Positions 2,999 to 50,039 of a stretch of DNA of 64,000 nt are shown piece by piece. How positions within the stretch are numbered: the stretch's first letter is position 1; each line of letters starts with the position of its first letter. Below the pieces are notes generated by a model that saw only the letters and a program-made list of their open reading frames with translations, was not told where the DNA came from and searched no databases. This stretch comes from an uncultured bacterium (GTDB lineage: Bacteria > Patescibacteriota > Saccharimonadia > Saccharimonadales > 2-12-FULL-41-12), in assembly GCA_963834265.1 (NCBI GenBank), contig CAWIAU010000001.1:469523-533522 (forward strand), read 5' to 3'. The position numbers and the translations under genes were made by a program.

Positions 2999-3150
2999 GC
3001 ATCTCCGGATTATTCAAATAAAGTTGTAATGGTTAGTATACCCTACTCTTATAAAGGACAAGTTTCAAGCCTACGATGCTTGCTAAGCCTAGTCAAGAGG
3101 TTTGGAATAATCCTTATGGTATAATATTATCAATCTAAAGAGAGATCAAA

Positions 3151-4821: not shown

Positions 4822-4852
4822 ATACATTTTTATAATTTAAATCCAGTTTTAT

Positions 4853-5430: not shown

Positions 5431-5467
5431 GAGTCAACTTGAAATGGGTTTTATAAAAATAATAACT

Positions 5468-6405: not shown

Positions 6406-6757
6406 TTGTAAGTCCCGTTTAGCGGGATTTTCGTACCTTACACCCAATGTTTGTCCGACAGGCTTGCCTGGGAGACATTCGTTAGATTGTTTTAGAGTTT
6501 ATACTAAGTTGTACCCTCCGCTTAGTATATATTATCTTACGACTTGTCGTGAGAACTCTAAAACAAGCTAACCCCTTTAACTACAACCATTAAAGTGAGT
6601 CTGAATGATTCCGTCTTACGACGGAGACACAGGTCCGTATATACTACCTGGACATTGATGTTTCGCTGGGTGGGTTGAAGGGTGTTTTTTGAGCTTGACA
6701 GGTTCGAGCTCTGTAAGGAGCTTCCAGCGGTGCCCACCCCCTCTGGAAGCTCCTTTT
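6406..6757 (+). ncRNA. Candidate structured noncoding RNA (about 350 nt) of unknown class, transcribed from the 6371 promoter and ended by an intrinsic terminator. It contains multiple internal hairpins (for example tatactaag...cttagtata 9 bp, cttacgac-ttg-gtcgtgag, tccgtc-ttac-gacgga) and a long-range helix gttttagagtt/aactctaaaac
   Basis: The promoter-to-terminator unit contains no ORF of 60 aa or more on either strand, has dense secondary structure, and sits 185 nt upstream of the next gene, which has its own TATAAT box. Confidence 0.5.
6717..6757 (+). terminator. Intrinsic terminator: 11-bp perfect stem ggagcttccag/ctggaagctcc with a 15-nt loop, followed by TTTT
   Basis: Perfect inverted repeat at 6717-6727 and 6743-6753, then a T-run at 6754-6757. 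Confidence 0.7.
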
Positions 6758-8226: not shown

Positions 8227-8239
8227 CTGAAAAATAAAT

Positions 8240-9616
8240 TCATGATTTATTTTCTTTGGTAGGGCTTTCGCCGTGTTTGTGGCGGCCGGCTTTTTCGATG
8301 AACCATAACTGGACAGATGTGCCCTCGTAGCCGAATTCACGGCGCATTTCTGTCTCCAGGTATCGTTTGTAGCTCCAGTGAAGAAATTTGGTATGCGCAC
8401 CGAATATTTTGAATGCAGGAATCGGATTATCATCTTCCTGAACGATATAGTTGAGCTTCGGTGCGCGGTTCCTGAGTCCGGCGGGCGGATGCTTCTCTGC
8501 CACACGGCGCAGCCAGCGGTTAAGTTCGGTGGTTTTGAGCCGTTTGGTACGTTGTTCCATAATATCCATGACAAGAGTATAGATCTGAGTTACATTCTGA
8601 CCCGTTATGCTGCTGGTAAATATTACGGGTGCCCATGGAATAAACTCATAATTACTCTTAATGCGGGGTGTTAATGTGTCCCTGGTATAAGCGTCTTTGT
8701 CTTCGACATCATCCCATTTGCTCACCACGAGAATGAGCCCTTTTCCTGCTTCTTTGATCATACCTGCGATTTTCTGGTCCAGCTGGACATTCAGTTCGCT
8801 GGCGTCCATGAGCAGTAAGCACACGTCTGCCTCTTCGATGGCCGACAATGCGCGGATTACACTGAACTTCTCTACTCCCCGCTCTATCTTACCACTGCGT
8901 CGTATGCCTGCCGTATCGAGTAATTCAATCTCACGCTGGTCGTATTTGATAACTGTACGGTTGATGTCGCGAGTGGTGCCCGCCTTGTCAGCTACAATTG
9001 CCTGTTGCTTCTTAGCTAAGGCATTGAACAGGCTGGACTTGCCGACATTCGGACGTCCCAGCAAAGCTACTCTGATCCGGTCATCCGCTTCGCGAATAGT
9101 GCTCTTAGGCAAAATACCGGACAGATAATCCAGCAAATCATCGAGCCCACGTGCTTGTGTGACAGAGGTAGCAAAAATTTTTTTAATACCCAGTTTTTGA
9201 AGATGATCCGGGCTTTGGCCACGGACTTTGTCAACCTTATTGCCGATCAGTATCACTGGTTTCTTGCTTTTGAGAGCCATTTTGGCAACACGCCGGTCCT
9301 CCTCAGTAATTTGCAGATGTGCTTCGACTATAACTATGATCACATCCGCGCTATCTGCTGCCTGTGCAATCTGTTCCTGTATGGTAAATTCAAAGTCGTC
9401 CTCCGGACTTTTCATACCAGCTGTATCTACCAGCCAGAAATTATGCAGGTCTTTCCCATGCCCTATGGTGGCTTTGGCAATGATACTGTCGCGTGTTGTA
9501 CCAGGTTCATCAGCCACAATGGCTTCGCGTCGACTCAGAACAGCATTAAAGAGACTGGATTTACCCACGTTTGCTCGTCCCACAATTGCCACAATAGGCA
9601 CTTTCTTACTACTCAT
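8240..9616 (-). CDS. der: Ribosome-associated GTPase Der/EngA (tandem GTPase domains plus a KH-like C-terminal domain)
   Basis: Two P-loops (GRANVGKSSLFN and GRPNVGKSSLFN), two DTAG motifs, 458 aa. Confidence 0.92.
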   Translation of the reverse strand: MSSKKVPIVAIVGRANVGKSSLFNAVLSRREAIVADEPGTTRDSIIAKATIGHGKDLHNFWLVDTAGMKSPEDDFEFTIQEQIAQAADSADVIIVIVEAHLQITEEDRRVAKMALKSKKPVILIGNKVDKVRGQSPDHLQKLGIKKIFATSVTQARGLDDLLDYLSGILPKSTIREADDRIRVALLGRPNVGKSSLFNALAKKQQAIVADKAGTTRDINRTVIKYDQREIELLDTAGIRRSGKIERGVEKFSVIRALSAIEEADVCLLLMDASELNVQLDQKIAGMIKEAGKGLILVVSKWDDVEDKDAYTRDTLTPRIKSNYEFIPWAPVIFTSSITGQNVTQIYTLVMDIMEQRTKRLKTTELNRWLRRVAEKHPPAGLRNRAPKLNYIVQEDDNPIPAFKIFGAHTKFLHWSYKRYLETEMRREFGYEGTSVQLWFIEKAGRHKHGESPTKENKS

Positions 9617-14083: not shown

Positions 14084-14158
14084 GGTCCCGTCGTCTAACG
14101 GTCAGGACACCAGGTTCTCATCCTGGCAATAGGGGTTCGATTCCCCTCGGGATCACCA
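14084..14158 (+). tRNA. tRNA-Glu (anticodon CUC), 75 nt with encoded CCA
   Basis: Cloverleaf: acceptor GGTCCCG/CGGGATC, D-arm GTCT..GGAC, anticodon stem CCAGG/CCTGG with loop TTCTCAT, T-arm AGGGG-TTCGATT-CCCCT; close to the E. coli tRNA-Glu scaffold. Confidence 0.9.
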
Positions 14159-15779
14159 CAAGAGACTTTGCCTCGTGCAAGGTCTTTTTTGATGACGATA
14201 CTTCTTTGTCTAACAGATGTGCTTCACGAAAAACGTATCCAGTTTTTGTGGTTCCAAATTTCATGTCTGCAAATACGCTTACGCCATTAGGCAAAACCAT
14301 CTTTTGGAACCGTAATCTGTTGTCACCATCTGCAATGTTCCACATACGGGCAGCGTTGGCCATATAGTCGATAGCCATATCAATTACTTTGTTCACGTCT
14401 AGGAACTCCTGCTCAATCTCACTGAGTTCAATCTCCATACTGGTACGTTCTATGGCAATCTTGTCTTTTTGCTCCGCAAGTTCGATGTCGTTAATGGCAC
14501 CACGTCTACACATGTCTATATATTCAGACTTTTGTTTGTCGAGGTCTGTTATATTCTTCTGTGCCATCGTTCGTCTGGCAACAGTTTCTGCGTAGTCAGC
14601 ATTCCACTTGCGAAGGACTATCTCTCTAAAAAGAGAAAGAGAGGCTGGAGAGGGCTGTAAGCCCTCAATTAGCCTCTCGAATGCCTCGTGTAACTCCGTA
14701 CGAGCTAGCGTAAGGTGCTTGTACGTACCTTTCTGCTTTCCCGTACGTCGTACTACGCCTTTGCAGTGCGTACAGTGATAGTACTCGTAGGCACCACCTG
14801 AGCGTCCCTTAGAAAGGCTACCTGTAAGCGTATTACCGCAGTAGCCACATGTTAAAAACCGTCGTAATGTCCACCTGCTTCGATTTTCACCATACGTGTG
14901 TTTCGGTTGGTCGTTATCGCCACGTAGCCTTGATTGTATCTGCCAATACTCGTCGGCGGTGATGAGTGCATTGTGAAAATGTAATCCCACTTGCATGTCA
15001 TCAAGCCCTTTACCACTTACAAAACCCGCATATATGGGGTTTCTGAGCATTGAGTAGACTGTGCTTTGACCAACTGGCTTATCGTACATCTTGCTGTATT
15101 TGCGTTTGCCATTAACAAGGGTTAAGCCTTTTGCTTGTATCTTGTACTTGCTGGCTGCTAGCGTAGAGGCACTGTCATTCAATATCTTGCCTTTAGCGAA
15201 ATCCTTGAGAAAACGCTGGACGTGCTTTGCCATCTCATCAGGTTCAACCGTCGGACGCTTTAAGCTATCTTTGATGTTTCGGTACCCAATCGGTGCTTTA
15301 TGTACCCAGCCGCCTTCCTGTAGCCTTGCTTGCATCCCTTTCGATGAACGCTCAGAGCGAACAGCATTGTCAAACTCAGCAAACGAAGCCAAAATGTGCT
15401 CCATTAGCTTGCCAGACGGTGTGTCCTCGAGTAGCTCAGTAGCAGAGCACAGTCTTATGCCCAACTTCATGAATATATTTACCAGTGCTATGTGGTCCTC
15501 GGTTTTACGAGCGAGCCTATCCAGCTTCCACACAACGACGTACTTGATTTCACCCTTATGTTCCATGCAGTAGCTTATAAGCTCTTTGAGCTGAGTACGG
15601 TCGGCAGTTTTGGCACTTTCACCTTCTTCTATGAAAACCCTTTCAACTGTGGCGTTAAGGCTTTTGGCGACAAAGTCACGACAAGCCTTCTCTTGCATCT
15701 CAAGACTTTTGTTCATCTCGGCTTGCTCTACGGTTGATACTCGTGTGTAAATAACAGCTTTCATGCCTGTCTCCTCCAC
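14118..15779 (-). CDS. Large serine recombinase/integrase (resolvase catalytic domain, recombinase domain, zinc ribbon, coiled-coil). The likely start is at 15764 (MKAVIYTRVS). The 3' end overlaps tRNA-Glu by about 40 nt
   Basis: IYTRVSTVEQ (catalytic Ser region), ...VVVWKLDRLAR..., zinc-ribbon CGYCG...CTHC, 553 aa. Confidence 0.9.
   Translation of the reverse strand: MEETGMKAVIYTRVSTVEQAEMNKSLEMQEKACRDFVAKSLNATVERVFIEEGESAKTADRTQLKELISYCMEHKGEIKYVVVWKLDRLARKTEDHIALVNIFMKLGIRLCSATELLEDTPSGKLMEHILASFAEFDNAVRSERSSKGMQARLQEGGWVHKAPIGYRNIKDSLKRPTVEPDEMAKHVQRFLKDFAKGKILNDSASTLAASKYKIQAKGLTLVNGKRKYSKMYDKPVGQSTVYSMLRNPIYAGFVSGKGLDDMQVGLHFHNALITADEYWQIQSRLRGDNDQPKHTYGENRSRWTLRRFLTCGYCGNTLTGSLSKGRSGGAYEYYHCTHCKGVVRRTGKQKGTYKHLTLARTELHEAFERLIEGLQPSPASLSLFREIVLRKWNADYAETVARRTMAQKNITDLDKQKSEYIDMCRRGAINDIELAEQKDKIAIERTSMEIELSEIEQEFLDVNKVIDMAIDYMANAARMWNIADGDNRLRFQKMVLPNGVSVFADMKFGTTKTGYVFREAHLLDKEVSSSKKTLHEAKSLVVIPRGIEPLLPG
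14164..14190 (+). terminator. Intrinsic terminator after tRNA-Glu (stem gactttgc/gcaaggtc plus T6)
   Basis: Hairpin at 14164-14184 followed by tttttt at 14185-14190. Confidence 0.6.
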
Positions 15780-15806
15780 TTATTGTCGTTATTAAATTGT
15801 TAAAGT

Positions 15807-15992
15807 TCAACCAACCATCGTAGAGTTTGGAACCGATGGCTCCTTTTTGATGCTCTTGATGGTGATTTCCGCCATGAGTTCAAGCTCCAAGATTAGTGCC
15901 TCGACTTCGGCATCAGATAAGCTAGCATACTCTTTCCCAAGTAGTTTCCTAGCTTCCTTTGTTGATATTATTTGCTGTTGCTCGTCTAACAT
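15807..15992 (-). CDS. Small hypothetical protein (61 aa) immediately upstream of the serine recombinase; possible recombination directionality or regulatory factor (speculative)
   Basis: ORF only; position in a recombinase operon. Confidence 0.3.
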   Translation of the reverse strand: MLDEQQQIISTKEARKLLGKEYASLSDAEVEALILELELMAEITIKSIKKEPSVPNSTMVG

Positions 15993-16260
15993 GACAAGAC
16001 GATGATAGGCTCATACGGCATTCCGTTCAGGCAGTCACGAGAAAAAGTACGAGACGTATGCGACACGACCTCGCCTAGCAATAGTTCAAATACGGTTTGT
16101 TACGGTTTGTCTCGGTCAATACCTAAAAGAATGTCAGCCATTTCAGTACTAACTCGTATGGGATTTATTAACTCTACTTCGTCTTTGCCAATACGCTTAA
16201 AAAATATATCTTTGAGCAGTTTACTAAAACCACACTGTCTCAAAGTCTCTGATATGTCAT

Positions 16261-16693
16261 CTAGATCTTGCAAGCCGCGTCAACGTCTCTTTTGAGTTCC
16301 GCCAGCTTCACAAGAGAACCAGGACGATTGTTAATGATGTAGCTGGTCAGCAGGTCAGGTTGTAGCCCCGCTCTCAAACGTTTAATATGACGCTTTTTTT
16401 CACCAACTACCAACCATAAGTTAAGCCCATCTTTCATCAGGCGAACCTCAATATCCTTTTGATGACTGGCAGCAGCAGGTGTGGTACGGGGGCTTGAGCT
16501 TTCGTTCAAGTTCAGCGTAGATTACGTCAAACTTGTCTGAGAGCCTAAGCTCAACCGCATCTTCCATCATCGCATCATAATCAAAAATATCTGGGGCACG
16601 ACGTGGTATCGGGTCTACTTTAACAACGGTGAAGTCAAGGTCAAAATTAACAGGCACATTTGCTCTCACCGAATTGGCCATACGCCATATCAT
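16261..16693 (-). pseudogene. Disrupted gene of unknown function (two overlapping reading frames, 82 and 81 aa, with an open upstream extension)
   Basis: Two frames overlap at 16448-16509; the upstream frame continues without a start. Confidence 0.4.
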
Positions 16694-16833
16694 TTCGCGA
16701 GATATTGTTTGCGATACAGCACCAAGCGGTGTTTCACCATTATGCAGGATTAAACCGCTTAATTCTAATCGGTCCTTCTGGAGCTTCTACGTTTTCAATG
16801 ATGATTTTAGTGCGTGTTGCAGGGTTGATGTAG

Positions 16834-17052
16834 TTATACTGCCGATTTTTCGGCAACTGGGCTATCGCTGATACTAGGTCGGACGCTGTAATTTGCATAT
16901 TCGTTATTATTACTTTCTAAGAAGTATAATAGCGTATCTGCTATGCCTTTTGAAAGCACAAAGGGTACTCCGTTGCCAATCATTTTGAACTTTGCACTCA
17001 AGCTAACGGTTGGCGGCAGTTCAAACTCCTTTGGTAATGACTGGAGAGACAT
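16834..17052 (-). pseudogene. C-terminal fragment of a DNA (cytosine-5) methyltransferase (motifs IX-X only)
   Basis: LQSLPKEFELP...KMIGNGVPFVLSKGIADTLL matches the C5-MTase C-terminal motif (RLQGFPDDF...IGNAV); the N-terminal catalytic motifs are absent and the upstream space is occupied by the recombinase fragment. Confidence 0.65.
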
Positions 17053-17141
17053 CGCTTCGGCAACACTTATCCGTCTTGGAAGATAGGGGTGCAGATGAAC
17101 CTCATTATTGCCATATGCACAGGGTGGGCGAATATCTCCAT

Positions 17142-17940
17142 CTATGTAAACTTGGAGACACGCAATAGGTCGGACTTATATGATTTAACCAGTGTAGTTA
17201 CAAAAGTATGCCGAAAACCATGAATAGTCTTTTCAATCTCAAGCTCTGTCAACAATTCTTTTACGACATACCGCAGTCCTCGTGTTGTTAATCGACTGCC
17301 TTTTGTTTTGCCCCAAAGTGATGTGAATAGGGGTAATGCTTCGTCTCGCACCTGTGAGCTGCGTAGATACGCCCTGATGGCTTTGGTCGCCCTCGGGGTG
17401 GAGACAGATGTATTGTTTGCTGTCTCTGCCTTTTCCTAGCACTTGAACACGACCAGAAGCTAGGTCAACATCACCGATGTCCAACCGTACTATTTCTATT
17501 TGCCGAAGCCCTTGATACAGCAGCAATGCTACCACTGCCCGTAAGCGTAGTATCTTGAAACTGTCTGATTGCTCACGAAGGTGCTGACATACCATCTCCG
17601 CTTCCTGCTCCGTCAGACCCTCAACTTTGTGTTGAAGTGTTTGCTGGAACGACTTGACACCCAAGCTCAGGTCAATCGAGATTGCTCCACGCCTATACAG
17701 TTCCTTGAGTGCTATACGGGCAACTGCTAAGTATTTATTCTTGGCGGCAATACCGAAATCTGTTCGGCTACGCAGATATTTCTTATACTCCAGCAATGAA
17801 TTACGGTTGATGCCGTTACGGTGGAGAAAACCCGCAAATTGTGGCAGCCGTGCCAAGTAATCCTGCTTAGTGCTTTCGGCTATGTCCATATCATCAAACA
17901 GTGTCGGTGTGCCAATAACAGATAGAAAATTACTCATCAC
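17142..17940 (-). pseudogene. Tyrosine recombinase (XerC/D or phage-integrase family), frameshifted and C-terminally truncated
   Basis: N-terminal part 17239-17940 has the box I region LRLRAVVALLLYQGLRQIEIVRLDIGDVDL...VLGKGRDSK. The C-terminal HGFRHTFVT motif (HxxRH) is in another frame at 17142-17351. No catalytic Tyr segment was found. Confidence 0.7.
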
Positions 17941-18533
17941 TTGCTCCTTTCAACTGACGGAGCTTGGCAACATACCTATCATCGCCACTATCGGGTTCAA
18001 CCTTGCTGTATTCATCGAACCAGAGCTTATGGCGAAAGTCTATCTCGTCCTGTGTGCCATCTTGCCAGTTTCCAAGCATCTTACGACCTCGCTTTGTATG
18101 AAAATCTAAGCTGAACTCGGGGATTTGCAGCAACTTACCACCAGTGTGTTCGGTGCGTATCAGGTTTACTAAGCTATCGGCTTCACGGGTCTTAATCGCC
18201 CTGCACAGGTAAATGATTGCCTGAAACAGGAACACCAGAGCATCGTTTTTCTTTCGATTTATGCCTGTGATTGCAATCTGGTAGTTACTCAGTAGAGAGC
18301 TAACCAGTATTGCGGCATCTGGCGTTGCATTGCCTATGTCCTCACTTGCGATTATTAGCACCCGTTTCCATACGTATTTGTGATAGCCGCTTTCGTGAAT
18401 TATAAGATGCCCAGTAACAGGCTTCGTACTCTAGATTACGTCTGATACATTTCTGCAAGGCACTCGCTACTTCGTCGAACGTATAGTCGTTAATTAGTTT
18501 AATTTCATAGGGTTTTGATGATGCTGTTGCCAT
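17930..18533 (-). pseudogene. Fragment corresponding to the C-terminal (MgsA_C) domain of a RarA/MgsA recombination ATPase. It is split over two frames and lacks the AAA+ domain
   Basis: DEVASALQKCIRRNLEYEACYWA (compare SALHKSIRGSDPDAALYW) in 18342-18533, and LIIASEDIGNATPDAA...ALVFLFQAIIYLCRAIKT (compare RRLVIIASEDIGLADP...LAQAVIYLA.APKSN) in 17930-18361. Confidence 0.6.
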
Positions 18534-18794
18534 TTACTTGTCTCCTTTGGCTCAAGCTCATCTTCGCAGGTAAAAACAGGGGTGACAACCGCTATTTTTG
18601 TGAAGTTTTGTGAATATTAAGGTACTGGCTGTTCGGGAGCTTTTGATTGCTGACTTTGCTCTTGTTGCTTCTGACGTTCATAACGCATAATCGTCAGTTT
18701 CTCCATAGACTTGACAGCTTTATCCAGTTGCTCACGTTCTTCATCTGACAATGGCTTTGTCTCGTCTTCTATTACGTGAGTAAAAGCTTTCGGT

Positions 18795-19112
18795 TCAGCC
18801 CAGCCATATATAACTTGAAACAGTAGCTTCTGAGCGACCAAACGAGCCTTTAAGGGCAGAATTGACCACCGCCATTGTGATAACGTCAGTGTGAACTGCC
18901 AATCTGGCACGGTCTCGCTCAAACAGCTTTTCAAAGTCCATCTCTTGGAAATGTTTATTTACTGTCTCACGGCTAATACCAGTGAGCTTGGCAATCTCGT
19001 CTTGAGTTGGGGACTTTTGAGAAGTCTTATAGTGCGTCAGGATTGCGTTACTAATCCTGCGGTGGTTATCTTCCCAGTCGAGCCTTTTGTCTTTTGGAGA
19101 GTTTTGAGACAT
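18795..19112 (-). CDS. Helix-turn-helix DNA-binding regulator (about 106 aa from the internal Met at 19112). It is possibly fused by a frameshift to the overlapping downstream ORF 18617-18934. It is divergently transcribed from the cargo operon
   Basis: SPTQDEIAKLTGISRETVNKHFQEM is a typical HTH; AAAGGG RBS upstream of the 19112 start; a 140-nt two-frame overlap with 18617-18934 suggests a frameshift. Confidence 0.55.
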   Translation of the reverse strand: MSQNSPKDKRLDWEDNHRRISNAILTHYKTSQKSPTQDEIAKLTGISRETVNKHFQEMDFEKLFERDRARLAVHTDVITMAVVNSALKGSFGRSEATVSSYIWLG

Positions 19113-19229
19113 CAACAACCCTTTAGTTAATTGGTATTGTCTTGTCTCCGTTAGATATATTTTACCATAACCACATCTGTTAATATACCTATTTGTTATA
19201 GTTTCAGCACCAGTTAAGAGGAGTAGGAT

Positions 19230-19430
19230 ATGGACATAAAACCTGCTGATATTGCAGATATGCAAAAGCTATATAAAAAACACTTCGGCATTGAGTTAGA
19301 CTACGATACTGCCTACCGTAAACTAACGATGCTCGTGCGACAAATGGAGTTAGTCTATCAACCAATAACCAAAAAACAAGCTGATGCAATTCACGGTAGT
19401 GATGAGGAAGCAAAAAAGCATAAGGATTAA
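19230..19430 (+). CDS. Small hypothetical protein (66 aa), first gene of the cargo operon
   Basis: Strong RBS GAGGAGTAGGAT before the ATG; no recognisable motif. Confidence 0.5.
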   Translation: MDIKPADIADMQKLYKKHFGIELDYDTAYRKLTMLVRQMELVYQPITKKQADAIHGSDEEAKKHKD

Positions 19431-19458
19431 CAGGGGTAGAAATGATATAATAAGGAGT

Positions 19459-19924
19459 ATGAACTTTGAATTACTAGGCTGGTTGGTAGCGGCGGGAACA
19501 CTGGCTTTTACCGTTTATACCCATTTCGATAAGAAAAAGAGCCAAAAGGTTAAATTAAAAGTCACGTTTCAGAATGGAATGCTGACATTTCACGGTGGCG
19601 AGCTGAGCGAGGCGATGTTGTTTATCAAAAGCTGCGAACATTGGAAATAAAGCAGTTACTATCAATACACCCCATATAAATGTAAAACACAACGACGGCG
19701 GTTCACTATTTACCGAGTTCGGTTCGTACCAACGATTACCGTACGTACTCGAGCCAGGAGACAGTGTGGTTGCGTGGCACGAGATAAAGCCAATTGCCCA
19801 AGCTCTAAAAGGGCACGGGCTAACGGGCAAGATTAAATTAGAAGGCTATTTTACTAGCCAAGTCGGTGATGAGTATAAAGCTAAAGCCTACACCCTGGAC
19901 GTAGACGACTGGTCTAAGGATTAA
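19459..19924 (+). pseudogene. Frameshifted gene. The N-terminal part (19459-19650, 63 aa, one TM helix, AAGGAG RBS) continues in the +1 frame (about 19607-19924, no in-frame ATG) as a beta-rich domain. The shift is probably within the A4 homopolymer near 19627-19630 (assembly error, programmed +1 frameshift, or decay)
   Basis: The second frame is open from 19607 to a TAA at 19922-19924 and encodes about 105 aa (...GSLFTEFGSYQRLPYVLEPGDSVVAWHEIKPIAQALKGHGLTGKIKLEGYF...) with no ATG, GTG or TTG start before residue 50; it ends 4 nt before the next ATG. Confidence 0.5.
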
Positions 19925-19928
19925 CACT

Positions 19929-21176
19929 ATGCCGATTGTCGGTGGCCAAATGTATGCAGAAGCCAGAGAGCAATTACGCAACTTCAACGAGCTGAATGTA
20001 CTTATACTTGGTTCAAGCACGAGAGAGATTGTAGCATTTCTGGAACAACTCAGCACGATGCACGTATACATCAATCAAACTCTGGGAACTAATGTAGGCA
20101 TAAAAGTTCACTGCACTGGTGCTTTTGATAGCAGAATTGCCCAACACTTTGGCTTAACGGTCCGTTCGCTGTCCGATATAAACGAGACTTCAACAAAAGA
20201 GCTTGTTCAAGCTGCCGACATTGACGTTATCTTCGACCAAGACAATGTATTGAGCAAACGGTACGCCCAGGATAATTTCTATGCCTTTCAGACTGTGAAT
20301 AGACTGACCGAGCTAGTTGCTTCCTGTGAAGACTTCTTAGTAGGAAATGACATCGCTTGGCTCTTTTCAAACATTACGTGGAACTTGCCCCTATTTATGC
20401 GTTACTTTGACCGCCCTGGGTTGTGTAGGGACTATTTTATGTTTATGGGCGAATGTACGGGCACTCACGGTTATACTAGCGACCAACAAGATAAAGTCAG
20501 GTACATCGCTAACCGCCTCGGGCAAATCGAGTATTCAAAAGACATCATACAGTCCTATATCAAGCGTATGCGTAAGGCAAAGCGTAATGGTTACTCGGAG
20601 CAAGATTTTGGTCTAGAGCTGAACTATCATCTTGGAAACTACTACTTCCTGATTGCTGGAGTTCTGGATAGTATGGCAAGGCTGTTGAATAACGTCTTGA
20701 AACTAGAACTAAACCGTCACCAGCTAGCACTTGAAAAAGAGGATTTTATTAACGCCAACAGGCGTAAAAGAACTGGCCTCGTCCGCATACTCACCAAAAG
20801 AGAGTTCACAGATTGGCAAAGCTTTTTAAAAGAACGCCGACACTTTATAGCCCACGAAGGTGATATGAGACAAAGCCCCCTCGTCGAGCAAAACGATGTA
20901 CTGCTAACTAACGACGAGGTAGAGAGACTGGTTGATGCCCAGAGCGACTGGACATATATGGCAACATTCACCACACGAGAAGTTATCCAAGCATTACGAG
21001 CTCAATCGGCTCAGATGGTTCGTATACAGCACGATTACAAAACAGTTGCTGAGTACGCAATGATAGTACCGAACGCCAACGGTACTAAGATATTCCAGCC
21101 CTTGAGGAGTATTGAGTATGACTATGACCAACTTGCTGACGTAATGACTAAGTTCCTGGCTAGATTAAAGGGCTGA
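19929..21176 (+). CDS. Hypothetical 415-aa cargo protein with a Rossmann-like N-terminal domain and a C-terminal R-x4-H (HEPN-like) motif (KERRHFIAHEG); candidate RNase or abortive-infection effector (hypothesis)
   Basis: Alternating beta-alpha pattern NVLILGSST...MHVYINQ...GIKVHCTGAF...DIDVIFDQD in the first roughly 120 aa; RRHFIAH motif at about residue 305; located on the integrated element as the last gene of an operon. Confidence 0.55.
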   Translation: MPIVGGQMYAEAREQLRNFNELNVLILGSSTREIVAFLEQLSTMHVYINQTLGTNVGIKVHCTGAFDSRIAQHFGLTVRSLSDINETSTKELVQAADIDVIFDQDNVLSKRYAQDNFYAFQTVNRLTELVASCEDFLVGNDIAWLFSNITWNLPLFMRYFDRPGLCRDYFMFMGECTGTHGYTSDQQDKVRYIANRLGQIEYSKDIIQSYIKRMRKAKRNGYSEQDFGLELNYHLGNYYFLIAGVLDSMARLLNNVLKLELNRHQLALEKEDFINANRRKRTGLVRILTKREFTDWQSFLKERRHFIAHEGDMRQSPLVEQNDVLLTNDEVERLVDAQSDWTYMATFTTREVIQALRAQSAQMVRIQHDYKTVAEYAMIVPNANGTKIFQPLRSIEYDYDQLADVMTKFLARLKG

Positions 21177-21365
21177 TTGATAGGTTCCATTCTATACCTG
21201 CACTAATGCACGTACTTTCTTCACTGATGTCGTATCTAGCACGTCGTGCCAGGAGACTAGTTCCTTCTTGAGTAGGTTCCAATTCTTTATCTCGTAGTTC
21301 ACCAGGAAAATGGACCGCGTTTTTTGTGGTCTGTTTTCATGTTAATTGTTGATAGAGAATCGAAC

Positions 21366-21388
21366 GGGAATGTTCGGTGAACATTCCC
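21366..21388. repeat. Perfect 10-bp inverted repeat with a 3-nt spacer (gggaatgttc ggt gaacattccc), about 60 bp inside the attR-like end of the element
   Basis: Seen directly; nested with cgaac...gttcg. Confidence 0.7.
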
Positions 21389-27926: not shown

Positions 27927-28034
27927 GTTTTACTCTTGGTTGTTTCTGGCTGGTTATGTTTATCTTAGTGTAAACCTCTGGTTCAAAAAGGTAAAGCATA
28001 AAATACGCATTCTGAAAAGCAACTAAAAACAAAT

Positions 28035-28290
28035 CTTTTTTTAAATCAGTTTCAAATGCCCTGCTTCGCAGTCCACTTGAGCTACTTTCTTGTGCCAACA
28101 AGAAAGTAGCCAAAGAAATGGCAGCAGTTGCCAAAAGCCTACTGAGTCCAATACCAGACTGACTTGTGATGTCCAGGACTCCTTACGGTCGGTCATTTTT
28201 ATAATTTTATAAGAGAAAAATGACTGGCTGGACATCAATGATTCAAGTCACCCTGATTGGACTCAATCGGTTTTGCCAAATGCTGGTCAG
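28035..28290 (+). repeat. Copy of intergenic repeat modules X+Y (perfect 11-bp hairpin ctactttcttg-tgccaa-caagaaagtag; gttgccaaaag; actccttacggtcgg; ggttttgccaaatgctgg)
   Basis: Alignable with 4853-5152 and 30645-30895. Confidence 0.75.
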
Positions 28291-28303
28291 AATCAATAAT
28301 CAG

Positions 28304-28906
28304 CTAAAGAGCGATCATAGTGTTAAGGGCAGTATTTATTGCTGAAATTGCTTCCGTTTCTTTCGTTGCTTGTGGGTCTTGCTGTGAGCTTGTACAACTT
28401 CCCCCAGGAGGACCCGCCAAATAATAGTAATCGTTAAGTTGTTTTTTGAATCGTGGGCTGTTTTCAGACATCATTGCGTCGTAGGTTTCCTTGAAGCTTC
28501 CCGCTTCACCAATTTCACCTATATATTTATCCAGTGCTTTACCTCTCTCAATAATAACCGTGCTGGCTGTGCAGTCTTTTGTAATGTTGTCTAAAATTTT
28601 TGACCTAAAGGCAAAGACAATGTTGCCATTTTGTTTTGTGTAAGCAAGACCATCTACCTGATCATTCAGTGGTATTTTAATTCCCCACTCGCTAACCGTT
28701 AAGTATTTTTGACTTGCTACTACTTCGTTCGTTGTATCAGTTTCTGGCTTTGGGTCATTCTTCTGAGAAGAAACCGATGAAGAATCTTCATTTTTATCTT
28801 TACTGGCATTAATCACATAGAATCCTGTGCCGGCAATCATTGATAAGGCAACGATTATTAATATGCCCTCGATTACACCGAAACCTTTTTGAGTAAGCTT
28901 TTGCAT
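28304..28906 (-). CDS. Type IV pilin-like protein (class III signal peptide, prepilin cleavage motif KGF|GVIEG with Glu at +5)
   Basis: N-terminus MQKLTQKGFGVIEGILIIVALSMIAGTGFYV. Confidence 0.75.
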   Translation of the reverse strand: MQKLTQKGFGVIEGILIIVALSMIAGTGFYVINASKDKNEDSSSVSSQKNDPKPETDTTNEVVASQKYLTVSEWGIKIPLNDQVDGLAYTKQNGNIVFAFRSKILDNITKDCTASTVIIERGKALDKYIGEIGEAGSFKETYDAMMSENSPRFKKQLNDYYYLAGPPGGSCTSSQQDPQATKETEAISAINTALNTMIAL

Positions 28907-28974
28907 AATATACTCTGCATTTCGATTATGGTTGTTTTAAATTACTATACAGCTTTTGATCTTAAATAAATACT

Positions 28975-29050
28975 TTAGTCCATGGCTCCCAACCAGGCCT
29001 TACAGCTTCCTGATAAGCGAGTGTCAGAAGAACAGTTCTTTTCTTTGCTA
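28975..29050 (+). repeat. Degenerate copy of the module Z start (ccatgg...caggcc...cttcctgataagcgagtgtcagaag)
   Basis: Aligns with 31515-31560 and 5146-5250, with an internal deletion. Confidence 0.5.
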
Positions 29051-29120
29051 AAAGAATTTGTATTTAGGAAAATAAAATATTACTTCTGTTATATAATAGA
29101 ATCTACAGCCTCACAAAACT

Positions 29121-30611
29121 ATGGAATTTCTTGATCCGATAAAAAAACGTCAGCGCTCTATCCGTCTCAACATCGGTCACTTACTTATGGCGGCTTTGGT
29201 TGTTATCGGTACCTATGTTCTGGTTCTGAGGGCTCAGGGCTATGATATAGATCGCAAGAGTGGCGAAGTTATACAAAATGCACTGGTTTTTGTTGACAGT
29301 GCTCCTGATGCGGCCACGATTAAAATAAATAACGAGCAATATAAAGACCTGACAAATACACGAATGGCTCTGCCGGACGGTAGCTATAAGTTAGAGCTTA
29401 ATAAAGCGGGTTATCGTGGCTGGCAAAGAGAATTTTCGGTAATTGGCGGTAGCGTGGAGCGATTTACTTATCCCGTGTTATTTCCCGAAAAGCTGGCGTC
29501 TGCAGAAGTGCAGACTTTTGACGGCGTGCCGACGATTGCTACAGAAAGCCCTGATCGCAAGTGGGTTTTGCTCGGACAACCCGGAACTACGGATACTTTT
29601 ACTCAGTATAATCTCGGGGCACTTACGAACCGTAAGCCCGCTGCTACATCATTCAAATTGCCTGCAGGCGTATTAACGGAGGCTGAGGGGGCACAGAGCT
29701 GGCAATTTGTTGAATGGTCCAGCGATAACCGGCATGTATTGCTCAGGCATATTTTCACGGGCGGACAAGAGTTCATTCTTGTCGATCGTGATGATCCAAC
29801 CCAGACAGTTAATATTAATCGTCAGCTTGCTCAGAACCCTACTACCATTACTCTGCGGGATAAAAGGTTTGATCAGCTATACCTGCATAATCAGGCCGAC
29901 CTGACTCTTAAAACTGCTGATTTGAAAACCCGTGTAGTCACACCCCTGTTAAATGGTGTATTAAGTTACAAATCACACGGTGGAGACAGGCTACTATACT
30001 CAACCGTTAGTCCTGCAGAGCAGGCCAAAGCAAGAATCTTCCTGAAAACCGGCAATGATACGTACGTGCTGCGTGATATACCTGTGTCAGCCAGTATGCC
30101 TCTGGAAATAGCACAATTCAACAATCACTGGTACATAGTAATCGGTAGCGACGCCGAGCAAAAAGTATACATATATAAAGATCCGCAGAATATTCTGAAA
30201 CTGCGTAATGACCAGAAGCCTGCGATTACTGCCATTTTTCGCATGGGAGGTCCTTTGCAGTCCTTGTCATTCTCTAATAACACTCGCATGATCATGGCTA
30301 ATAGCGGTCAGCATTTTAATATTTATGACATTGAGACAAAGCGTAGCTACGGATACAATATTACGGATCCACTTGACATCGGAAGCATTCCTCTCTGGAT
30401 GGATGGTCACCGTTTACTGATCCGCAGCGCAGGTAATGTAATCGTATTTGATTACGACGGTATTAATAAGCAGATATTAGTTCCTTCTGACCCTGCTATT
30501 CCCGTATTTTTTGACCGTGATTATGAAGCACTTTACAGTCTTAGCCCTTCTCTGTCTGCATCCGGCAAGCAGGTCTTCGGTCGCACCGAACTCCGCGTAC
30601 TGCCCAAATAG
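29121..30611 (+). CDS. Membrane-anchored PEGA-domain protein followed by a beta-rich (propeller-like) extracytoplasmic domain
   Basis: TM LLMAALVVIGTYVLVL; PEGA-like ATIKINNEQYKDLTNTRMALPDGSYKLELNKAGY. Confidence 0.65.
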   Translation: MEFLDPIKKRQRSIRLNIGHLLMAALVVIGTYVLVLRAQGYDIDRKSGEVIQNALVFVDSAPDAATIKINNEQYKDLTNTRMALPDGSYKLELNKAGYRGWQREFSVIGGSVERFTYPVLFPEKLASAEVQTFDGVPTIATESPDRKWVLLGQPGTTDTFTQYNLGALTNRKPAATSFKLPAGVLTEAEGAQSWQFVEWSSDNRHVLLRHIFTGGQEFILVDRDDPTQTVNINRQLAQNPTTITLRDKRFDQLYLHNQADLTLKTADLKTRVVTPLLNGVLSYKSHGGDRLLYSTVSPAEQAKARIFLKTGNDTYVLRDIPVSASMPLEIAQFNNHWYIVIGSDAEQKVYIYKDPQNILKLRNDQKPAITAIFRMGGPLQSLSFSNNTRMIMANSGQHFNIYDIETKRSYGYNITDPLDIGSIPLWMDGHRLLIRSAGNVIVFDYDGINKQILVPSDPAIPVFFDRDYEALYSLSPSLSASGKQVFGRTELRVLPK

Positions 30612-30644
30612 CCAGGATTATATTTTCGATTAATTTTTTTGATA

Positions 30645-30895
30645 AAAAATAGTTCTTCCGACGAAGAACCAAGTCAATACTTTTGTCAGCAGCAACAAAA
30701 GTATCCAAAAACGCCGCAGACAGTTGCCAAAATCACGATAGAAAATCAGTCCAAATAGAGCGTGGCTCCGGAACTCCCTCCGGTCGACCCCACCTTATAT
30801 TTTTATAGAAAGGCGGGGCTAGTCCTCGCCAATGACTCGCTCTATTTGCCCGAATTTTCATCGGTTTTGCCAAATGCTGAAGTAATTCATGGATT
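30645..30895 (+). repeat. Copy of intergenic repeat modules X+Y (gttcttccgacgaagaac hairpin; gttgccaaaa; actccctccggtcga; ggttttgccaaatgctg; catgga)
   Basis: About 85% identical to 4904-4984 and alignable to 5123-5152. Confidence 0.75.
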
Positions 30896-30956
30896 TTTTT
30901 TATCAATTTAAAAACATATCATTGATAATTTTACCTTAATATGATAATGTGATGAA

Positions 30957-31502
30957 ATGGTAATTCCGCTCGAGGCTCAGACCTTTGAAACATATGAAGC
31001 AAATACGGCATCGCAAAGAACGGCTCTTGGACTTTCGAGAGATATAGCTAATTTGGCTATTGAGCAATTTGCGTGTAGTGAGCCGACAAAACCTGCTGCA
31101 TTTTATTTTTCGGGCCCTGCGGGCGTTGGAAAGACACATCTACTTCATTCAATTGCAGCAGTTCTTATTGAAAATGAAATCCCGCATGCTAGATGGCAGA
31201 AAGACCTAGGACCTTCAGTAGCTGAACAGATTAAACATGTACAATTAATTGATGATTTTGATCCTACCTTACTTTATATATTTAATCGGGCTGTTGTTGA
31301 CTGTTACTATCCGAGAGGTCAGTTATTAGTTATTAACTCTAATGAACCATTAAAAGTTGTCAAAAATGGACTTAAAAGTATCGATGAACACGGACGTGCG
31401 GCTTCTCGTTTGTCAGAAATGATTAAAAGAGGTCAGGAAATCAAAATGACGGGGCCTGATCATCGACAAACAGGTAATTTCCCCAAAGCTATTCCAAAAT
31501 AA
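30957..31502 (+). CDS. DnaA domain III / Hda-like AAA+ ATPase (181 aa; there is no DnaA N-terminal domain or domain IV)
   Basis: QTFETYEAN (compare DnaA YTFDNFV), Walker A FSGPAGVGKTHLLHSI, Walker B LIDDFD, sensor-1 LLVINSNEPL. Confidence 0.7.
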   Translation: MVIPLEAQTFETYEANTASQRTALGLSRDIANLAIEQFACSEPTKPAAFYFSGPAGVGKTHLLHSIAAVLIENEIPHARWQKDLGPSVAEQIKHVQLIDDFDPTLLYIFNRAVVDCYYPRGQLLVINSNEPLKVVKNGLKSIDEHGRAASRLSEMIKRGQEIKMTGPDHRQTGNFPKAIPK

Positions 31503-31514
31503 TAATGTGTTTGT

Positions 31515-31737
31515 CCATGGTTTGCCTCAGGCCCGAAAAGTTCCTGATTAGCGAGTGCCAAAAGTACAATTAGAGCGAAGCAGTGTCTAAGCCAATCTCT
31601 CATTGAAAGTAATTAAAAATTGGTGAGTTTGCTGAGCATTGTGCTTTTTGACAATAAGATCATAAAGAAGCTTTTCGAGCCTGTTGCTTCTTTGCCTACT
31701 TTCTGGTCAACACAAGAAAGTAGGTTGTGGTGACTTT
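31515..31737 (+). repeat. Copy of intergenic repeat module Z (ccatgg...ctcaggcccgaaaagttcctga...gtgccaaaag...hairpin cctactttctggtcaacacaagaaagtagg)
   Basis: About 85-90% identical to 5215-5430. Confidence 0.8.
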
Positions 31738-31784
31738 TAAGTCGTCATGAATATGGATTTTATTAAAAATAATTCTTTATGGGT

Positions 31785-32984
31785 TTAGAACCAGTTTTTT
31801 ATTTTTTGCCAGAGGCTGGGTGAATTACTGGGGAGAACCGTGGGCTGCTCGTTAGGATTAACGGTGCTTGCTGCATTTGCATTGGGGTCAGGAAATATCT
31901 GTTCTGCCTGGATGATCAGACGGTTGGTAGAAAGACCGGGAGGATCGCAGGTTATCAGTGTAACAATTGATGTCCGGTCTTTGGGAGGTCCCAGAACAGA
32001 TACATCGGAAGGATTGGTGACGTACTTATTGTAGATTTTGTATACGTACTGTTTGCTGTCTTTGTGAATTATAAATGTGTCACCGGTATCCAGACTTTTT
32101 AGCAGAAGAAAAGCAAATTTGTACTGTCCTTTATTAAGGATATTGCCGCTGGAGTGACCGAAGAGCACCGCATTTCCCTTTTCGCCGGGATTCGGTGTCG
32201 TGCCATAATGTACAACTCCCCTCTCCAGACCTTTTTGAACGGCTGATTCTTCGATAGACGGAACATCATAAACTACGGGCGCTTCGATATTGATTTTGGG
32301 AATAATAATTTTAGGCTCAGGACTAACAGGAGCGCTGTTGTTGGGATCAACAATTATCGGTGTAGCGCTGATTGCATGACCCGGACGTATGAATGGTGTT
32401 AGAAACCTTTCGTTGAAAAAGCTGAATAAAAGGATAAAAACAACCAGACTTCCCATGCTCAGTCCGAAAAACAATGCCCTGACATGATGATTTACCTTTC
32501 TTCTCTTACCCCGCTTTTGGACACGGGTCAAAAGTTCCTGCTTGATATCCGGTCTGCTGCGTCTCGATGCCCGGGCTCTGTGAGCAGGCGTTGTGGGTGC
32601 ATGGACTGGTTTGACATTTTGCTGGGGCGGAATGACTTTTGGTTCAGAAACTTTCTTCTCAGGCTGTTTGGTCCTTTGTTCGTGAGCAGTATAGAACTCC
32701 TGCCAGATCTCATGCTTCTCGTTATCCGGTAACTGCTGATAGTACTCGTGCCAGGCTATCTGTATTTCTGCCAGGCTACGTCCACTAAGGCTAAGATCCT
32801 GCATATATTTCTGATGTTTGGAAAGATGCAGGTTATCGCTATGGGGTAATTCAAGAATTTCTTCTTGTGCGTTAGGCTCGTCTTTATATAACGCGTCAAG
32901 TTTTCCGCGTATTAAATTAGCTGCCGATTCCTGTTGCAGCTTACTATCTACTGTAGGTGGTGTTGGATGAGCATGTGAGTCCAT
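31785..32984 (-). CDS. Sortase-family transpeptidase with an N-terminal cytoplasmic extension and a TM anchor
   Basis: TLITCDP (TLxTC active-site Cys motif), NAVLFGHSSG (His), TM ALFFGLSMGSLVVFILLFSFF. Confidence 0.8.
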   Translation of the reverse strand: MDSHAHPTPPTVDSKLQQESAANLIRGKLDALYKDEPNAQEEILELPHSDNLHLSKHQKYMQDLSLSGRSLAEIQIAWHEYYQQLPDNEKHEIWQEFYTAHEQRTKQPEKKVSEPKVIPPQQNVKPVHAPTTPAHRARASRRSRPDIKQELLTRVQKRGKRRKVNHHVRALFFGLSMGSLVVFILLFSFFNERFLTPFIRPGHAISATPIIVDPNNSAPVSPEPKIIIPKINIEAPVVYDVPSIEESAVQKGLERGVVHYGTTPNPGEKGNAVLFGHSSGNILNKGQYKFAFLLLKSLDTGDTFIIHKDSKQYVYKIYNKYVTNPSDVSVLGPPKDRTSIVTLITCDPPGLSTNRLIIQAEQIFPDPNANAASTVNPNEQPTVLPSNSPSLWQKIKNWF

Positions 32985-42034: not shown

Positions 42035-42089
42035 ACAGTAATTATACTTTATAATAGATAAAATACAAAGTATATTGTTTAAAGTTTAT

Positions 42090-42884
42090 TTAAACAAGAG
42101 ATATACTGACGGGGCAATGGTCGGAGCCCAGGACATCGGCGTGGATTTCGGCTTTTTTTACCTTATCTTTCAAAGCATTTGATACGAGAAAATAGTCGAT
42201 ACGCCAACCTACATTGCGGGCACGGGCATTGGCCCAATGGGTCCACCACGTGTAGTAGCCGTTTCCCTGTTTAAATATTCTGAATGTATCGGTGAAACCG
42301 GCCTTCAGCCAGTTATCAAAACCTGATCTTTCCTGGTCGCTAAAGCCTTTTTTGCCTATATTCGGCTTCGGATTGGCCAGATCGTCCTCTGTATGGGCGA
42401 CGTTCATGTCGCCGCAGTAGATTACTGGTTTTTTAGTTTGCAGATCAGTGCAGTAAGCAACCATGGCTTTATCCCATTCCTGCCTTAAATCTATTCTTAG
42501 TAATCCGTCTTTTGCATTGGGCGTATAGCAAGTCACAACATAATAAATATCAAATTCCAGCGTAATCACCCTACCCTCTTTATTGGCGTCGCCGTATCCG
42601 TCGGAGGCCAGACCGCTTGATTTTATAAATTTTTCAGGAATATCATTGATAATAGCGATCGGCTTAATTCTGGTGAATATAGCCGTGCCGGAATATCCTT
42701 TTTTGTCTGCAGAATTCCAGTATTCTTCGTAGCCGCTCAGATCAACAATAGCCTGCCCCTGCTCAGCTTTAGTCTCTTGTAAACAGAGAATGTCCGGCTG
42801 ATGCTTTGCTATAAATTCCTGAAAAGTTCCTTTTTTGACGATGGCTCGGATACCATTAACATTCCACGAGTAAATTTTTGTCAT
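42090..42884 (-). CDS. xth: Exodeoxyribonuclease III (AP endonuclease, EEP family)
   Basis: MTKIYSWNVNGIRA...DILCLQETK...C-terminal SDHCP. Confidence 0.9.
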   Translation of the reverse strand: MTKIYSWNVNGIRAIVKKGTFQEFIAKHQPDILCLQETKAEQGQAIVDLSGYEEYWNSADKKGYSGTAIFTRIKPIAIINDIPEKFIKSSGLASDGYGDANKEGRVITLEFDIYYVVTCYTPNAKDGLLRIDLRQEWDKAMVAYCTDLQTKKPVIYCGDMNVAHTEDDLANPKPNIGKKGFSDQERSGFDNWLKAGFTDTFRIFKQGNGYYTWWTHWANARARNVGWRIDYFLVSNALKDKVKKAEIHADVLGSDHCPVSISLV

Positions 42885-49603: not shown

Positions 49604-49649
49604 TGCTCCGTTACTTCCGGGAAAATTTACTATTCACTATACAGTAAAT

Positions 49650-50039
49650 TTACCGGAAGCAATAAAATGAGTAATAATCAGGGATCTGTTTAACAGCTAA
49701 CCGAGAAGCTCTCCATGGATGTTCAATAGGGCCGTCAGGTAATGGAGCAGACTCTATGTAGTTTCCACCATCGAGAACAGATCCGAGGGTAGGATGAGGA
49801 GCAACACCACCAGCTAACTGATCTCCCGTCATGACCTGTTGAGTGCCGTCAAGGCCGGGTTCGAATTCGCCGATCTCAGGCGCGGATTCTGTTCTTGCTC
49901 TTAGTTGTATGGACAAGCTGGCACCTACTGCCTCAAATGCAATTTGAGCAAGTTCCCCTATAGCCCCTAATTTGGGGGAGATTTTCAACTCAGCGCCATT
50001 CTCATGTTCCGGATCTGTCATATATAATAACAATAGCAC
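49650..50039 (-). CDS. Hypothetical protein (start uncertain)
   Basis: ORF only. Confidence 0.4.
   Translation of the reverse strand: MLLLLYMTDPEHENGAELKISPKLGAIGELAQIAFEAVGASLSIQLRARTESAPEIGEFEPGLDGTQQVMTGDQLAGGVAPHPTLGSVLDGGNYIESAPLPDGPIEHPWRASRLAVKQIPDYYSFYCFR

Follow-up and report, generated by a model that had tools for sequence, protein, structure and literature searches.

Compensated, strand-biased folds in a candidate family of non-autonomous repeat elements from a Saccharimonadales genome

A hairpin at 28081-28110 (here called hpB) and the repeat elements to which it belongs were analyzed in a stretch of 64,000 nucleotides (the window; contig CAWIAU010000001.1 of GenBank assembly GCA_963834265.1, positions 469,523 to 533,522) from an uncultured bacterium of the order Saccharimonadales. 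The hairpin changes its sequence between copies while keeping its pairing, and repeat finding, alignment and profile searches identify it as the subterminal stem-loop of a repeat unit of ~300 bp. The units are read here, with a probability of about 0.5, as a lineage-specific family of non-autonomous repeat elements of the miniature inverted-repeat transposable element (MITE) or mobile insertion cassette (MIC) kind, with folding selected most likely as transcribed 3' modules. Four things are observed directly: the repeat architecture, the lack of units at orthologous sites in relatives, the compensatory evolution of hpB, of one kind of rod-like hairpin (L rod) and of the tip hairpins, and a strand bias of wobble pairs. 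From the sequence we infer that the units are mobile.

The stem ctactttcttg, loop tgccaa and stem caagaaagtag, which a sequence-only reading of the window had placed at 28082-28109, are present as described. G28081-C28110 and the loop-closing T-A also pair, giving 13 perfect base pairs around a GCCA loop (28081-28110). No other perfect hairpin with a stem of 11 bp or more (loop 3-12) occurs in the window; shuffled windows have 0.13 on average and two at most (100 dinucleotide-preserving shuffles). With a limit of at least 9 bp the window has 12 perfect hairpins, 6 of them hpB copies (20 hits vs 2.7 expected). The remaining ones lie at 5798-5824, 6500-6529, 8231-8253, 21366-21388, 42075-42097 and 49623-49651; five of these six fall in gaps between open reading frames (ORFs) and are probably ordinary terminators, and the one at 5798-5824 is inside dprA.

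The second hairpin of the same reading (cttcctttttg / tgccaa / caaaaacgaag, 56288-56315) is present too and is a homologous copy. Three stem positions differ between the two copies, and two of these are compensated as had been claimed (A:T to T:A and C:G to T:A). At the third position T:A is replaced by C.C, i.e., both sides are altered and the pair is lost, leaving 10 of 11 bp at 56288-56315. The two hairpins are not same-orientation copies of one module: the 56288 copy sits in an R-type unit of opposite orientation, and the two are thus terminal-inverted-repeat partners. Three hairpins listed for the middle segment all exist and pair, but the coordinates 5052-5090 given for the first were wrong by 10-14 nt; they are located at 5042-5076 (gccctgttc/gaacagggc), 28191-28227 (ggtcattttt/aaaaatgac(tgg)) and 30788-30818 (ccccacctt/aaggcgggg, with a single A.C that is a G.U on the other strand). 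The general observation that pairing is retained despite sequence change exceeds both shuffle and slide controls, and extends to many more helices than had been listed.

Each unit begins on its outer side with an A+T-rich terminus (TTTTTWWAAATCMR), and further inward come, in this order, the small hairpin hpA, hpB, the sequence CCAAAGAAA, a rod, which is an imperfect hairpin of ~175 nt, and a conserved inner end (CTGR-N6-CCATGGACTAAAGTATT). The motif CCATGGAC has 7 occurrences in the window vs 1.5 expected, 5 of the 7 at unit inner ends. Units fall into two kinds, L and R, which have the outer ~110 bp and the inner ~35 bp in common and unrelated rod cores. L rods carry, in this order, GTTGCCAA, ACTCCYTNYGGTCG, the variable tip hairpin, CAATGAYTC and TCSGTTTTGCCAAATGCTG, and R rods carry CAGGCCCGAAAAGTTCCTGANNAGCGAGTGYCARAAG, GAGTTTGCTGAGCATTGTG and TTTTGACAATGAGATC; the diagnostic pattern of either kind matches 4/4 units vs 0 expected.

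In a composite element an L unit is set opposite an R unit of inverted orientation, which provides the composite with terminal inverted repeats of ~85-115 bp. The five loci are E0 (1-695, minus strand, cut by the window start), E1 (4822-5470, plus strand), E2 (28028-29060), E3 (30640-31790) and the solo R unit E4 (56245-56540, minus strand). The space between the facing units is empty in E1 and contains one small gene with a promoter of its own in E0, E2, and E3; besides the solo unit, internally deleted units are also present. Unit alignments were built from 3-4 L and 3-5 R units, and the nhmmer census counts nine units within 64 kb, four of the L kind and five of the R kind; three of these five R units are full, one is internally deleted and one is truncated by the start of the window. 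The outer ends of L and R cross-hit in inverted orientation (E 2e-14 to 8e-4). The outer-end alignment spans seven outer ends, and the arms of E1 are 25 nt long and 76% complementary. No ORF common to the units was found; a Shine-Dalgarno-like GGAG followed by an ATG at a suitable distance from the conserved bulge of the L rod (see below) occurs in E1 only, and hence there is no conserved ORF.

Covariation was assessed in few copies of a single genome (8 of hpB, 7 of them distinct, 4 of the L rod and 3 of the full R rod), and the shuffle control disregards relatedness, which makes the figures suggestive rather than a formal test. Among the eight hpB copies 84% of cells are paired and 5/11 pairs are changed on both sides. 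The observed covariation score is reached in 0/500 column shuffles, and sliding the 3' partner by 1-3 columns leaves 36-57% paired. For the four L rods RNAalifold finds 44 pairs on the top strand (18 compensatory, 86% of cells paired) and 57 pairs on the bottom strand (25 compensatory, 91% of cells paired, the tip helix 100%). All measures, including the compensatory counts and the covariation score, are reached by 0/500 shuffles on either strand, except that for further pair types on the top strand, which was reached in 32/500 shuffles; slid controls are 23-48% paired. For example, helix H4 reads GATACGAAA/TTTCGTATC in E0, GACATGGAA/TTCCATGCC in E1, GATGTCCAG/CTGGACATC in E2 and TGGC/GCCA in E3. 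The unpaired motifs of the L rod, a 12-nt bulge (RACTCCYTNYGG) and the loop AATGAYT, are invariant.

Independently of any alignment, complementarity within copies is seen in the arm-swap test, in which the 5' half of one L rod is joined to the 3' half of another copy. Such chimeras lose 14-19 kcal/mol on average: the native L rods of E1, E2, and E3 fold at -56, -67, and -58 kcal/mol (-75, -71, and -69 on the other strand), and the chimeras at -43 +/- 4 kcal/mol (-46 +/- 4 on the other strand). The L rod of E0 does no better than the chimeras. Folding z-scores are -6.8 (E2), -5.3 (E3) and -3.6 (E1). The three R rods also fold well, but their stems are conserved in sequence.

Comparison of E1 with E3 shows where the change is concentrated. 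Flanks and R units are 84-94% identical and the bulge motif 93%, vs 43-59% for the L-rod arms and 60% for the tip; the low-identity arm regions compared are 4985-5115 in E1 and 30733-30856 in E3. The L-rod stems are the most diverged part of the element and are still paired. Either whole rods have been exchanged between element lineages, or compensated change confined to the stems has been accelerated. The same mosaics would fit an explanation without any selected structure, in which a DNA-level process (intrastrand templated repair, template switching from arm to arm, or cruciform-associated conversion) keeps the arms complementary and differences between copies stem from recombination among lineages. 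The contrast between the E1/E3 flanks and arms does suggest whole-rod exchange, and long inverted repeats such as these arms are in principle known as substrates of such processes. Nevertheless, this explanation is very unlikely: the asymmetric bulges (12 nt and 7 nt) lie on one arm only and are kept in all four copies, copying from arm to arm would give perfect pairs and not a wobble bias on one strand, and the partly decayed E0 implies that no homogenizing process keeps its stems perfect.

Two short conserved motifs of the units deserve mention on their own. TGCCAAA recurs on one element strand, with 8 of its 23 window matches at 4977, 5127, 5245, 28129, 28274, 30725, 30868 and 31556. Both arms of the L-rod base helix keep it in direct orientation, although this entails conserved G.A and C.C mismatches, and such retention suggests a strand-specific recognition motif. 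The 12-nt bulge (5028-5039, 28178-28189, 30773-30784 and, on the minus strand, 519-532) reads ACTCCYTNYGG on one strand, resembling the anti-Shine-Dalgarno tail of 16S rRNA, and CCRNARGGAGT on the favored strand, resembling a Shine-Dalgarno sequence or a CsrA-type GGA site. A guide or antisense role of the variable arms was considered and set aside, as they have no significant match elsewhere in the window. The same applies to a role as restriction sites, CCATGG not being depleted in the window (21 observed vs 15.8 expected).

The strand on which the rods fold was examined by classes of mismatch, with the 5' arm of each rod aligned to the reverse complement of its 3' arm. L rods have 14 A.C vs 3 G.T and R rods 10 A.C vs 4 G.T, an A.C being a G.U on the other strand. 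Single-sequence energies on the favored vs the other strand are -74.8 vs -56.1 (E1), -68.5 vs -57.7 (E3) and -71.4 vs -67.3 kcal/mol (E2), and consensus energies are -42.8 vs -22.8 kcal/mol for L rods and -41.4 vs -35.8 kcal/mol for R rods. Wobble counts, minimum free energies and consensus energies thus agree on one strand of the composite element, which runs from its R end to its L end. The sequence-only reading had offered a cruciform as an alternative to an RNA; this finds no support, since the mismatches are strand-asymmetric, the consensus fold favors one strand, and a cruciform has no reason to tolerate wobbles on one strand only. Mutation bias linked to replication is rejected as the cause of the asymmetry: cumulative GC skew falls steadily across the window, while the elements occupy both genomic orientations, so that the strand bias tracks the element and not replication.

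Selection would accordingly seem to act on the folding of one strand, from the R end to the L end, in a molecule that is most likely RNA and possibly single-stranded DNA, which the strand bias by itself does not separate. The leaning to RNA comes from the flanking genes and from two of the four L units. dprA, a sortase gene and purP stop 0-25 nt short of R outer ends, and their transcription runs into these ends on exactly the favored strand. Terminator-like L outer ends, with a hairpin and a T-run on that strand, are found in E3 (30671-30650 followed by TTTTTT) and E1 (4921-4904). About 14% of the favored-strand pairs of the L rod are G.U. The elements sit in short intergenic gaps directly 3' of stop codons, and in the mechanism proposed here the structures would act as transcribed 3' modules that stop, insulate or stabilize transcripts entering from convergent neighbors. 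Such modules would make insertions tolerable. The ends, which are conserved in sequence, would be there for a transposase whose gene lies elsewhere.

The distribution of the units fits a lineage-specific family. DprA homologs with a named source belong to Candidatus Saccharimonadales or Saccharibacteria, and five relatives with DprA 63-74% identical retain the order histidine kinase, response regulator, RluA, Der, Pth, DprA, TopA, with a dprA-topA gap of 70-250 bp. No L or R unit is present in ~57 kb of DNA from these five, including the dprA-topA and post-topA gaps; at such a distance the absence from orthologous sites is weak evidence of recent movement. Scans with exact motifs gave 7 matches in GTDB genomes, all by chance or coding (e.g., the RelA motif MIRFAKCC), 0 and then 19 matches in JGI metagenomes, all by chance, and in IMG/VR 3 chance matches within a single phage gene, followed by two scans with 0. 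Phages and plasmids compared by blastn likewise yielded no match. Rfam at gathering thresholds identifies only three tRNAs in the whole window; at E up to 10, the region 27950-31850 (E2 and E3) has only chance-level hits far below threshold, and no group I or II intron, 6S, HEARO, ROOL or ribozyme was found in these searches. Taken together, the lack of copies in the scanned genomes, metagenomes, phages and plasmids and of any Rfam match makes the family look lineage-specific. In Logan sample ERR12037361 the exact DprA is found on a contig of 1184 bp and a 99%-identical E3 cargo protein (encoded between the units of E3) on a contig of 1004 bp, which implies that a near-identical strain exists in that run; contigs of only ~1 kb around these genes are expected if the units are repeated in that strain as well. 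Candidate direct repeats for a target-site duplication are ATTATTAA around E4 and TTTTATAA around E1, but the termini are A+T-rich, and chance or the inverted repeat itself would explain them equally well.

The claim that covariation here is the signature of a functional structured RNA holds for the covarying structure; it is not established for RNA as opposed to single-stranded DNA, or for a free-standing functional RNA. Caution is called for as the hairpins are parts of repeat elements whose terminal inverted repeats resemble transposon ends. In the free-standing version, L and R are two families of trans-acting non-coding RNA genes, e.g., protein sponges that display the conserved unpaired ARGGAGU, AAUCAUUG and UUUGGCA of the favored strand, and the inverted-repeat appearance is secondary. 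Bulges and loops conserved while stems covary are the usual signature of functional RNA, E1 and E3 have the terminator-like end, and rod sizes and z-scores are typical of small RNAs. That L and R are such genes is still improbable, since they share an inverted outer end of ~110 bp, occur as truncated and solo copies, have no conserved promoter found upstream of the rods and no Rfam relative, and resemble nothing in the scanned genomes and metagenomes, a pattern more typical of a young mobile repeat than of a functional RNA.

In another reading the hairpins and rods are single-stranded DNA that folds and is acted on by the enzyme responsible for moving the elements, as in the REP/REPIN-RAYT, IS200/IS605-TnpA or attC-IntI systems. 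Copies that lose the fold would then stop transposing, and survivors would show compensated stems and a preferred strand. Hairpins stand beside both termini and the ends are conserved in sequence, folding is strand-specific with DNA energy parameters favoring the same strand for L rods, the conserved unpaired bulges in a variable stem recall the extrahelical bases of attC, and the family is multi-copy with decayed and solo units. On the other hand, the window has no HUH, RAYT or IntI gene, the ends are inverted, those of IS200/IS605 being direct, no attC R-box consensus is seen on direct reading, G.T is a true mismatch in DNA while ~14% of the bottom-strand pairs wobble, and element orientation is not uniform relative to replication. 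We regard such a substrate as a tentative and rather doubtful alternative to the transcribed 3' module.

A further role of single-stranded DNA, as a promoter or priming signal of the Frpo, ssi or sso kind that is active, e.g., after competence uptake, is extremely unlikely. In Frpo elements an intergenic hairpin imitates a duplex promoter (PMC11541004). A TTGAnn-N18-AATCAT arrangement is found on the favored strand of the L rods, with 9/12 matches to the sigma-70 consensus in E1 and identical spacing in all four, and dprA and pilin-like genes are present in this naturally competent lineage. However, the -10-like hexamer is a weak match and falls within an unpaired loop, a promoter scan yields no more sites than shuffles, R rods lack a motif of this type, and there is no evidence of a single-stranded stage. 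A sigma-54 promoter was also considered and rejected, as its consensus features are missing.

Several observations weigh against the units being mobile elements with transcribed 3' modules. As to mobility, no target-site duplication was established and no empty site or polymorphism in a close strain was found, the window has no autonomous copy with the same ends, and E1 is its only complete element with both ends. The genes enclosed by L and R (cargo) lie in both orientations, the E2 cargo being on the strand opposite to its units; since this gene belongs to a widespread pilin-like family, unit pairs may merely flank ordinary host genes. Movement of whole cassettes, with the cargo between L and R, is putative. 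As to the fold, the copies are few (n = 4, 3, and 8) and from one genome, which makes covariation statistics weak and lets shared ancestry inflate them. The R rods covary little, with 5 compensatory pairs of which most are at the tip, and swapping their arms gives no information. As to the strand, the call is based on 31 mismatch columns, and the top strand has conserved G.U pairs of its own (GGUCG/CUGGYU and the base helix). Neighbor genes on the L side are transcribed into L units on the less favored strand, and L rods fold best antisense to them. As to termination, hpB is not scored as an intrinsic terminator on either strand and no T-run follows it; most unit ends are not canonical terminators, the sole exception being the hpA variant of E1 and E3, which scores as one on the minus strand.

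The individual loci differ in completeness. In E0 the R unit begins at 1-72, and the L unit (395-695, minus strand) has its rod at 420-596 and hpB at 604-629; the cargo ORF (70-324, minus strand) encodes 84 aa and has its own TGGTATAAT promoter. E1, which is without cargo, occupies the space between the stop codons of ORF 3151-4821 and of dprA (5468-6328), and has no plausible ORF. It has an L unit at 4903-5175, with the rod at 4964-5142 (minus strand) and the conserved bulge ACTCCCTCTGG at 5028-5038, and an R unit at 5176-5470, with the rod at 5217-5373 (minus strand) followed by hpB at 5385-5414. Ahead of this complete L unit, which is of the E3 type, there is an extra outer-end fragment (4822-4900) with an A+T run, hpA and a decayed hairpin (cactttcttg-tgccaa-caaaaacc), suggesting a nested insertion or recombination between two elements.

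In E2 the L unit (28028-28300, plus strand) starts with a T-run, followed by hpA at 28061-28071, the flagged hpB and the L rod at 28116-28290; the R unit (28960-29060, plus strand) has its rod largely deleted and its outer hairpins deleted. The cargo gene (28304-28906, minus strand) encodes a 200-aa pilin-like protein with the N-terminus QKGFGVIEGILIIV. It has no close homologs, all relatives being at most 43% identical. E3 has an L unit at 30640-30895 (plus strand), with an hpA variant at 30652-30669 (terminator-like on the minus strand), an hpB variant at 30677-30704 and the rod at 30712-30884, and an R unit at 31505-31790 (plus strand), with the rod at 31528-31684 and hpB at 31695-31724, which extends as far as the sortase stop codon (gene 31785-32984). 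Its cargo gene (30957-31502, plus strand) encodes 181 aa with a weak AAA+ match (Walker A, DnaC/DnaA-like) and has no homologs outside the source organism; it was considered as a remnant of IS21 IstB, but the similarity is of the generic Walker-A type only. E4, with its rod at 56328-56498, fills the space left between two stop codons, those of purP (56244) and of a CMAS-family methyltransferase gene (56554).

No transposase domain was detected in the cargo ORFs, and Pfam scans of 50 window ORFs for a transposase of the units give recombinases only in a separate island at 14-18 kb. This is a probable integrated element (14084-21200) that adjoins tRNA-Glu (14084-14158) and holds no L or R units. 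It includes a gene for a large serine recombinase (14118-15779, minus strand) overlapping the 3' part of tRNA-Glu, a tyrosine-recombinase fragment (17239-17940), a C-terminal fragment of MgsA, a helix-turn-helix protein and a HEPN-domain protein (19929-21176). Window genes near the elements include topA, dprA, der, pth, gltX, tgt, purA, guaA and two purP-like genes. The latter are in tandem (54107-56244; DUF1246 and DUF1297, archaeal-type FAICAR synthetase family), and the second ends exactly at the outer end of E4.

E0 is located after topA, and ORF 3151-4821, together with E1, separates dprA and topA, which are neighbors in the five relatives. This ORF was tried as a transposase gene and rejected; it encodes a surface protein of 556 aa that is secreted, proline-rich and membrane-anchored. 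The conserved topA promoter region (ACGTAGGCTTGA...GGTATACTAACC) is kept at about 3020-3100. ORF 3151-4821 and the E0 cargo ORF are preceded (at 3110-3125 and, on the minus strand, at 355-372) by nearly the same extended -10 promoter, AATCCT(T)ATGGTATAAT, which represents either the strong promoter consensus of the organism or a shared promoter cassette.

Bacteria of the candidate phyla radiation (CPR), including Saccharibacteria, have tiny genomes, and units that bracket lineage-specific small genes offer a handle on the gain and shuffling of accessory genes. The L rod is in addition an unusually clean natural case of strongly diverging stems that stay paired. In a limited literature search no report of repeat families of this kind was found for Saccharibacteria or other CPR bacteria, and comparison is made here with systems known from elsewhere.

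Large structured RNAs such as 6S, OLE, ROOL, GOLLD and HEARO share with the units a long, highly paired RNA-like fold with conserved internal loops, and some of them ride mobile elements. The units differ from them in having no Rfam match, several diverged copies per 64 kb and inverted terminal homology. REP/REPIN, ERIC, pneumococcal BOX and Neisseria Correia sequences are intergenic palindromic repeats of 20-150 nt with near-identical copies. Like these, the units are modular, imperfect palindromes just after stop codons, often between convergent genes, that keep their folding potential. In contrast, they are ~300 nt long, their stems are 43-69% identical between copies yet complementary within, and they pair around genes with two different rods at the two ends. 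REP/REPIN are inverted doublets of a REP of 20-40 nt in genomes that also encode RAYT; the rods are inverted doublets in form, but the arms are ~75 nt long and variable, and the window has no RAYT/Y1 transposase. In IS200/IS605-type elements (including the palindrome-associated type, PATE) the subterminal hairpins are direct on one strand and terminal inverted repeats are lacking; here the flanks of hpB (CCAAAGAAA...) have opposite orientations at the two ends.

Integron attC sites are likewise hairpins defined by structure, with conserved unpaired bases, variable terminal structure, a preference for one strand and an association with single small genes, either promoterless or with a promoter. 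In attC, however, the R''/R' consensus is RYYYAAC / GTTRRRY, which is absent from the elements: their base helix is CAGCRGTTGCCAAAA / GTTTTGCCAAATGCTG, and on direct reading neither of its strands fits. The rod has 175 nt vs 57-141 nt for attC, and two different sites flank each gene in inverted orientation, as opposed to direct arrays in which every cassette has a single attC. The window encodes no IntI, and its recombinases are limited to the serine enzyme and tyrosine fragment of the separate island. It is conceivable, if quite unlikely, that L and R rods are structure-defined sites of an undescribed CPR gene-cassette system and that one element strand, folded into two different rods with conserved bulges and variable but complementary arms, is recognized by its structure (cf. 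attC, the folded att of CTX phage and single-strand promoter or priming signals). If so, small genes could be excised, carried, re-inserted or expressed as single-stranded DNA, which would fit DNA uptake by competence pili; and a fold that served as a recombination or priming signal rather than a transcript structure would amount to a new cassette mechanism.

MITEs and MICs remain the preferred comparison. MICs are IS-like inverted ends that flank passenger genes without a transposase, as in MIC231, derived from IS231 of Bacillus cereus. The elements differ from both in their inverted ends, which are unusually long (85-115 bp) and are each followed by a ~175-nt rod that is not the same at the two ends; in stems that covary, with the L-rod arms of E1 and E3 (43-59%) diverging more than the rest (84-94%); and in that neither a target-site duplication nor a parent IS (insertion sequence) was identified. 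With MITEs they share the lack of an internal transposase gene, the terminal inverted repeats, the many copies and the absence from orthologous sites, and with MICs a passenger gene unrelated to transposition between L and R (E0, E2, E3). As in these groups, they are non-autonomous and intergenic, have truncated and solo ends, and exist in an empty version (E1, ~650 bp) and in versions with one unrelated small gene. The family is at present a good candidate for a new family of mobile elements, and not for a new principle.

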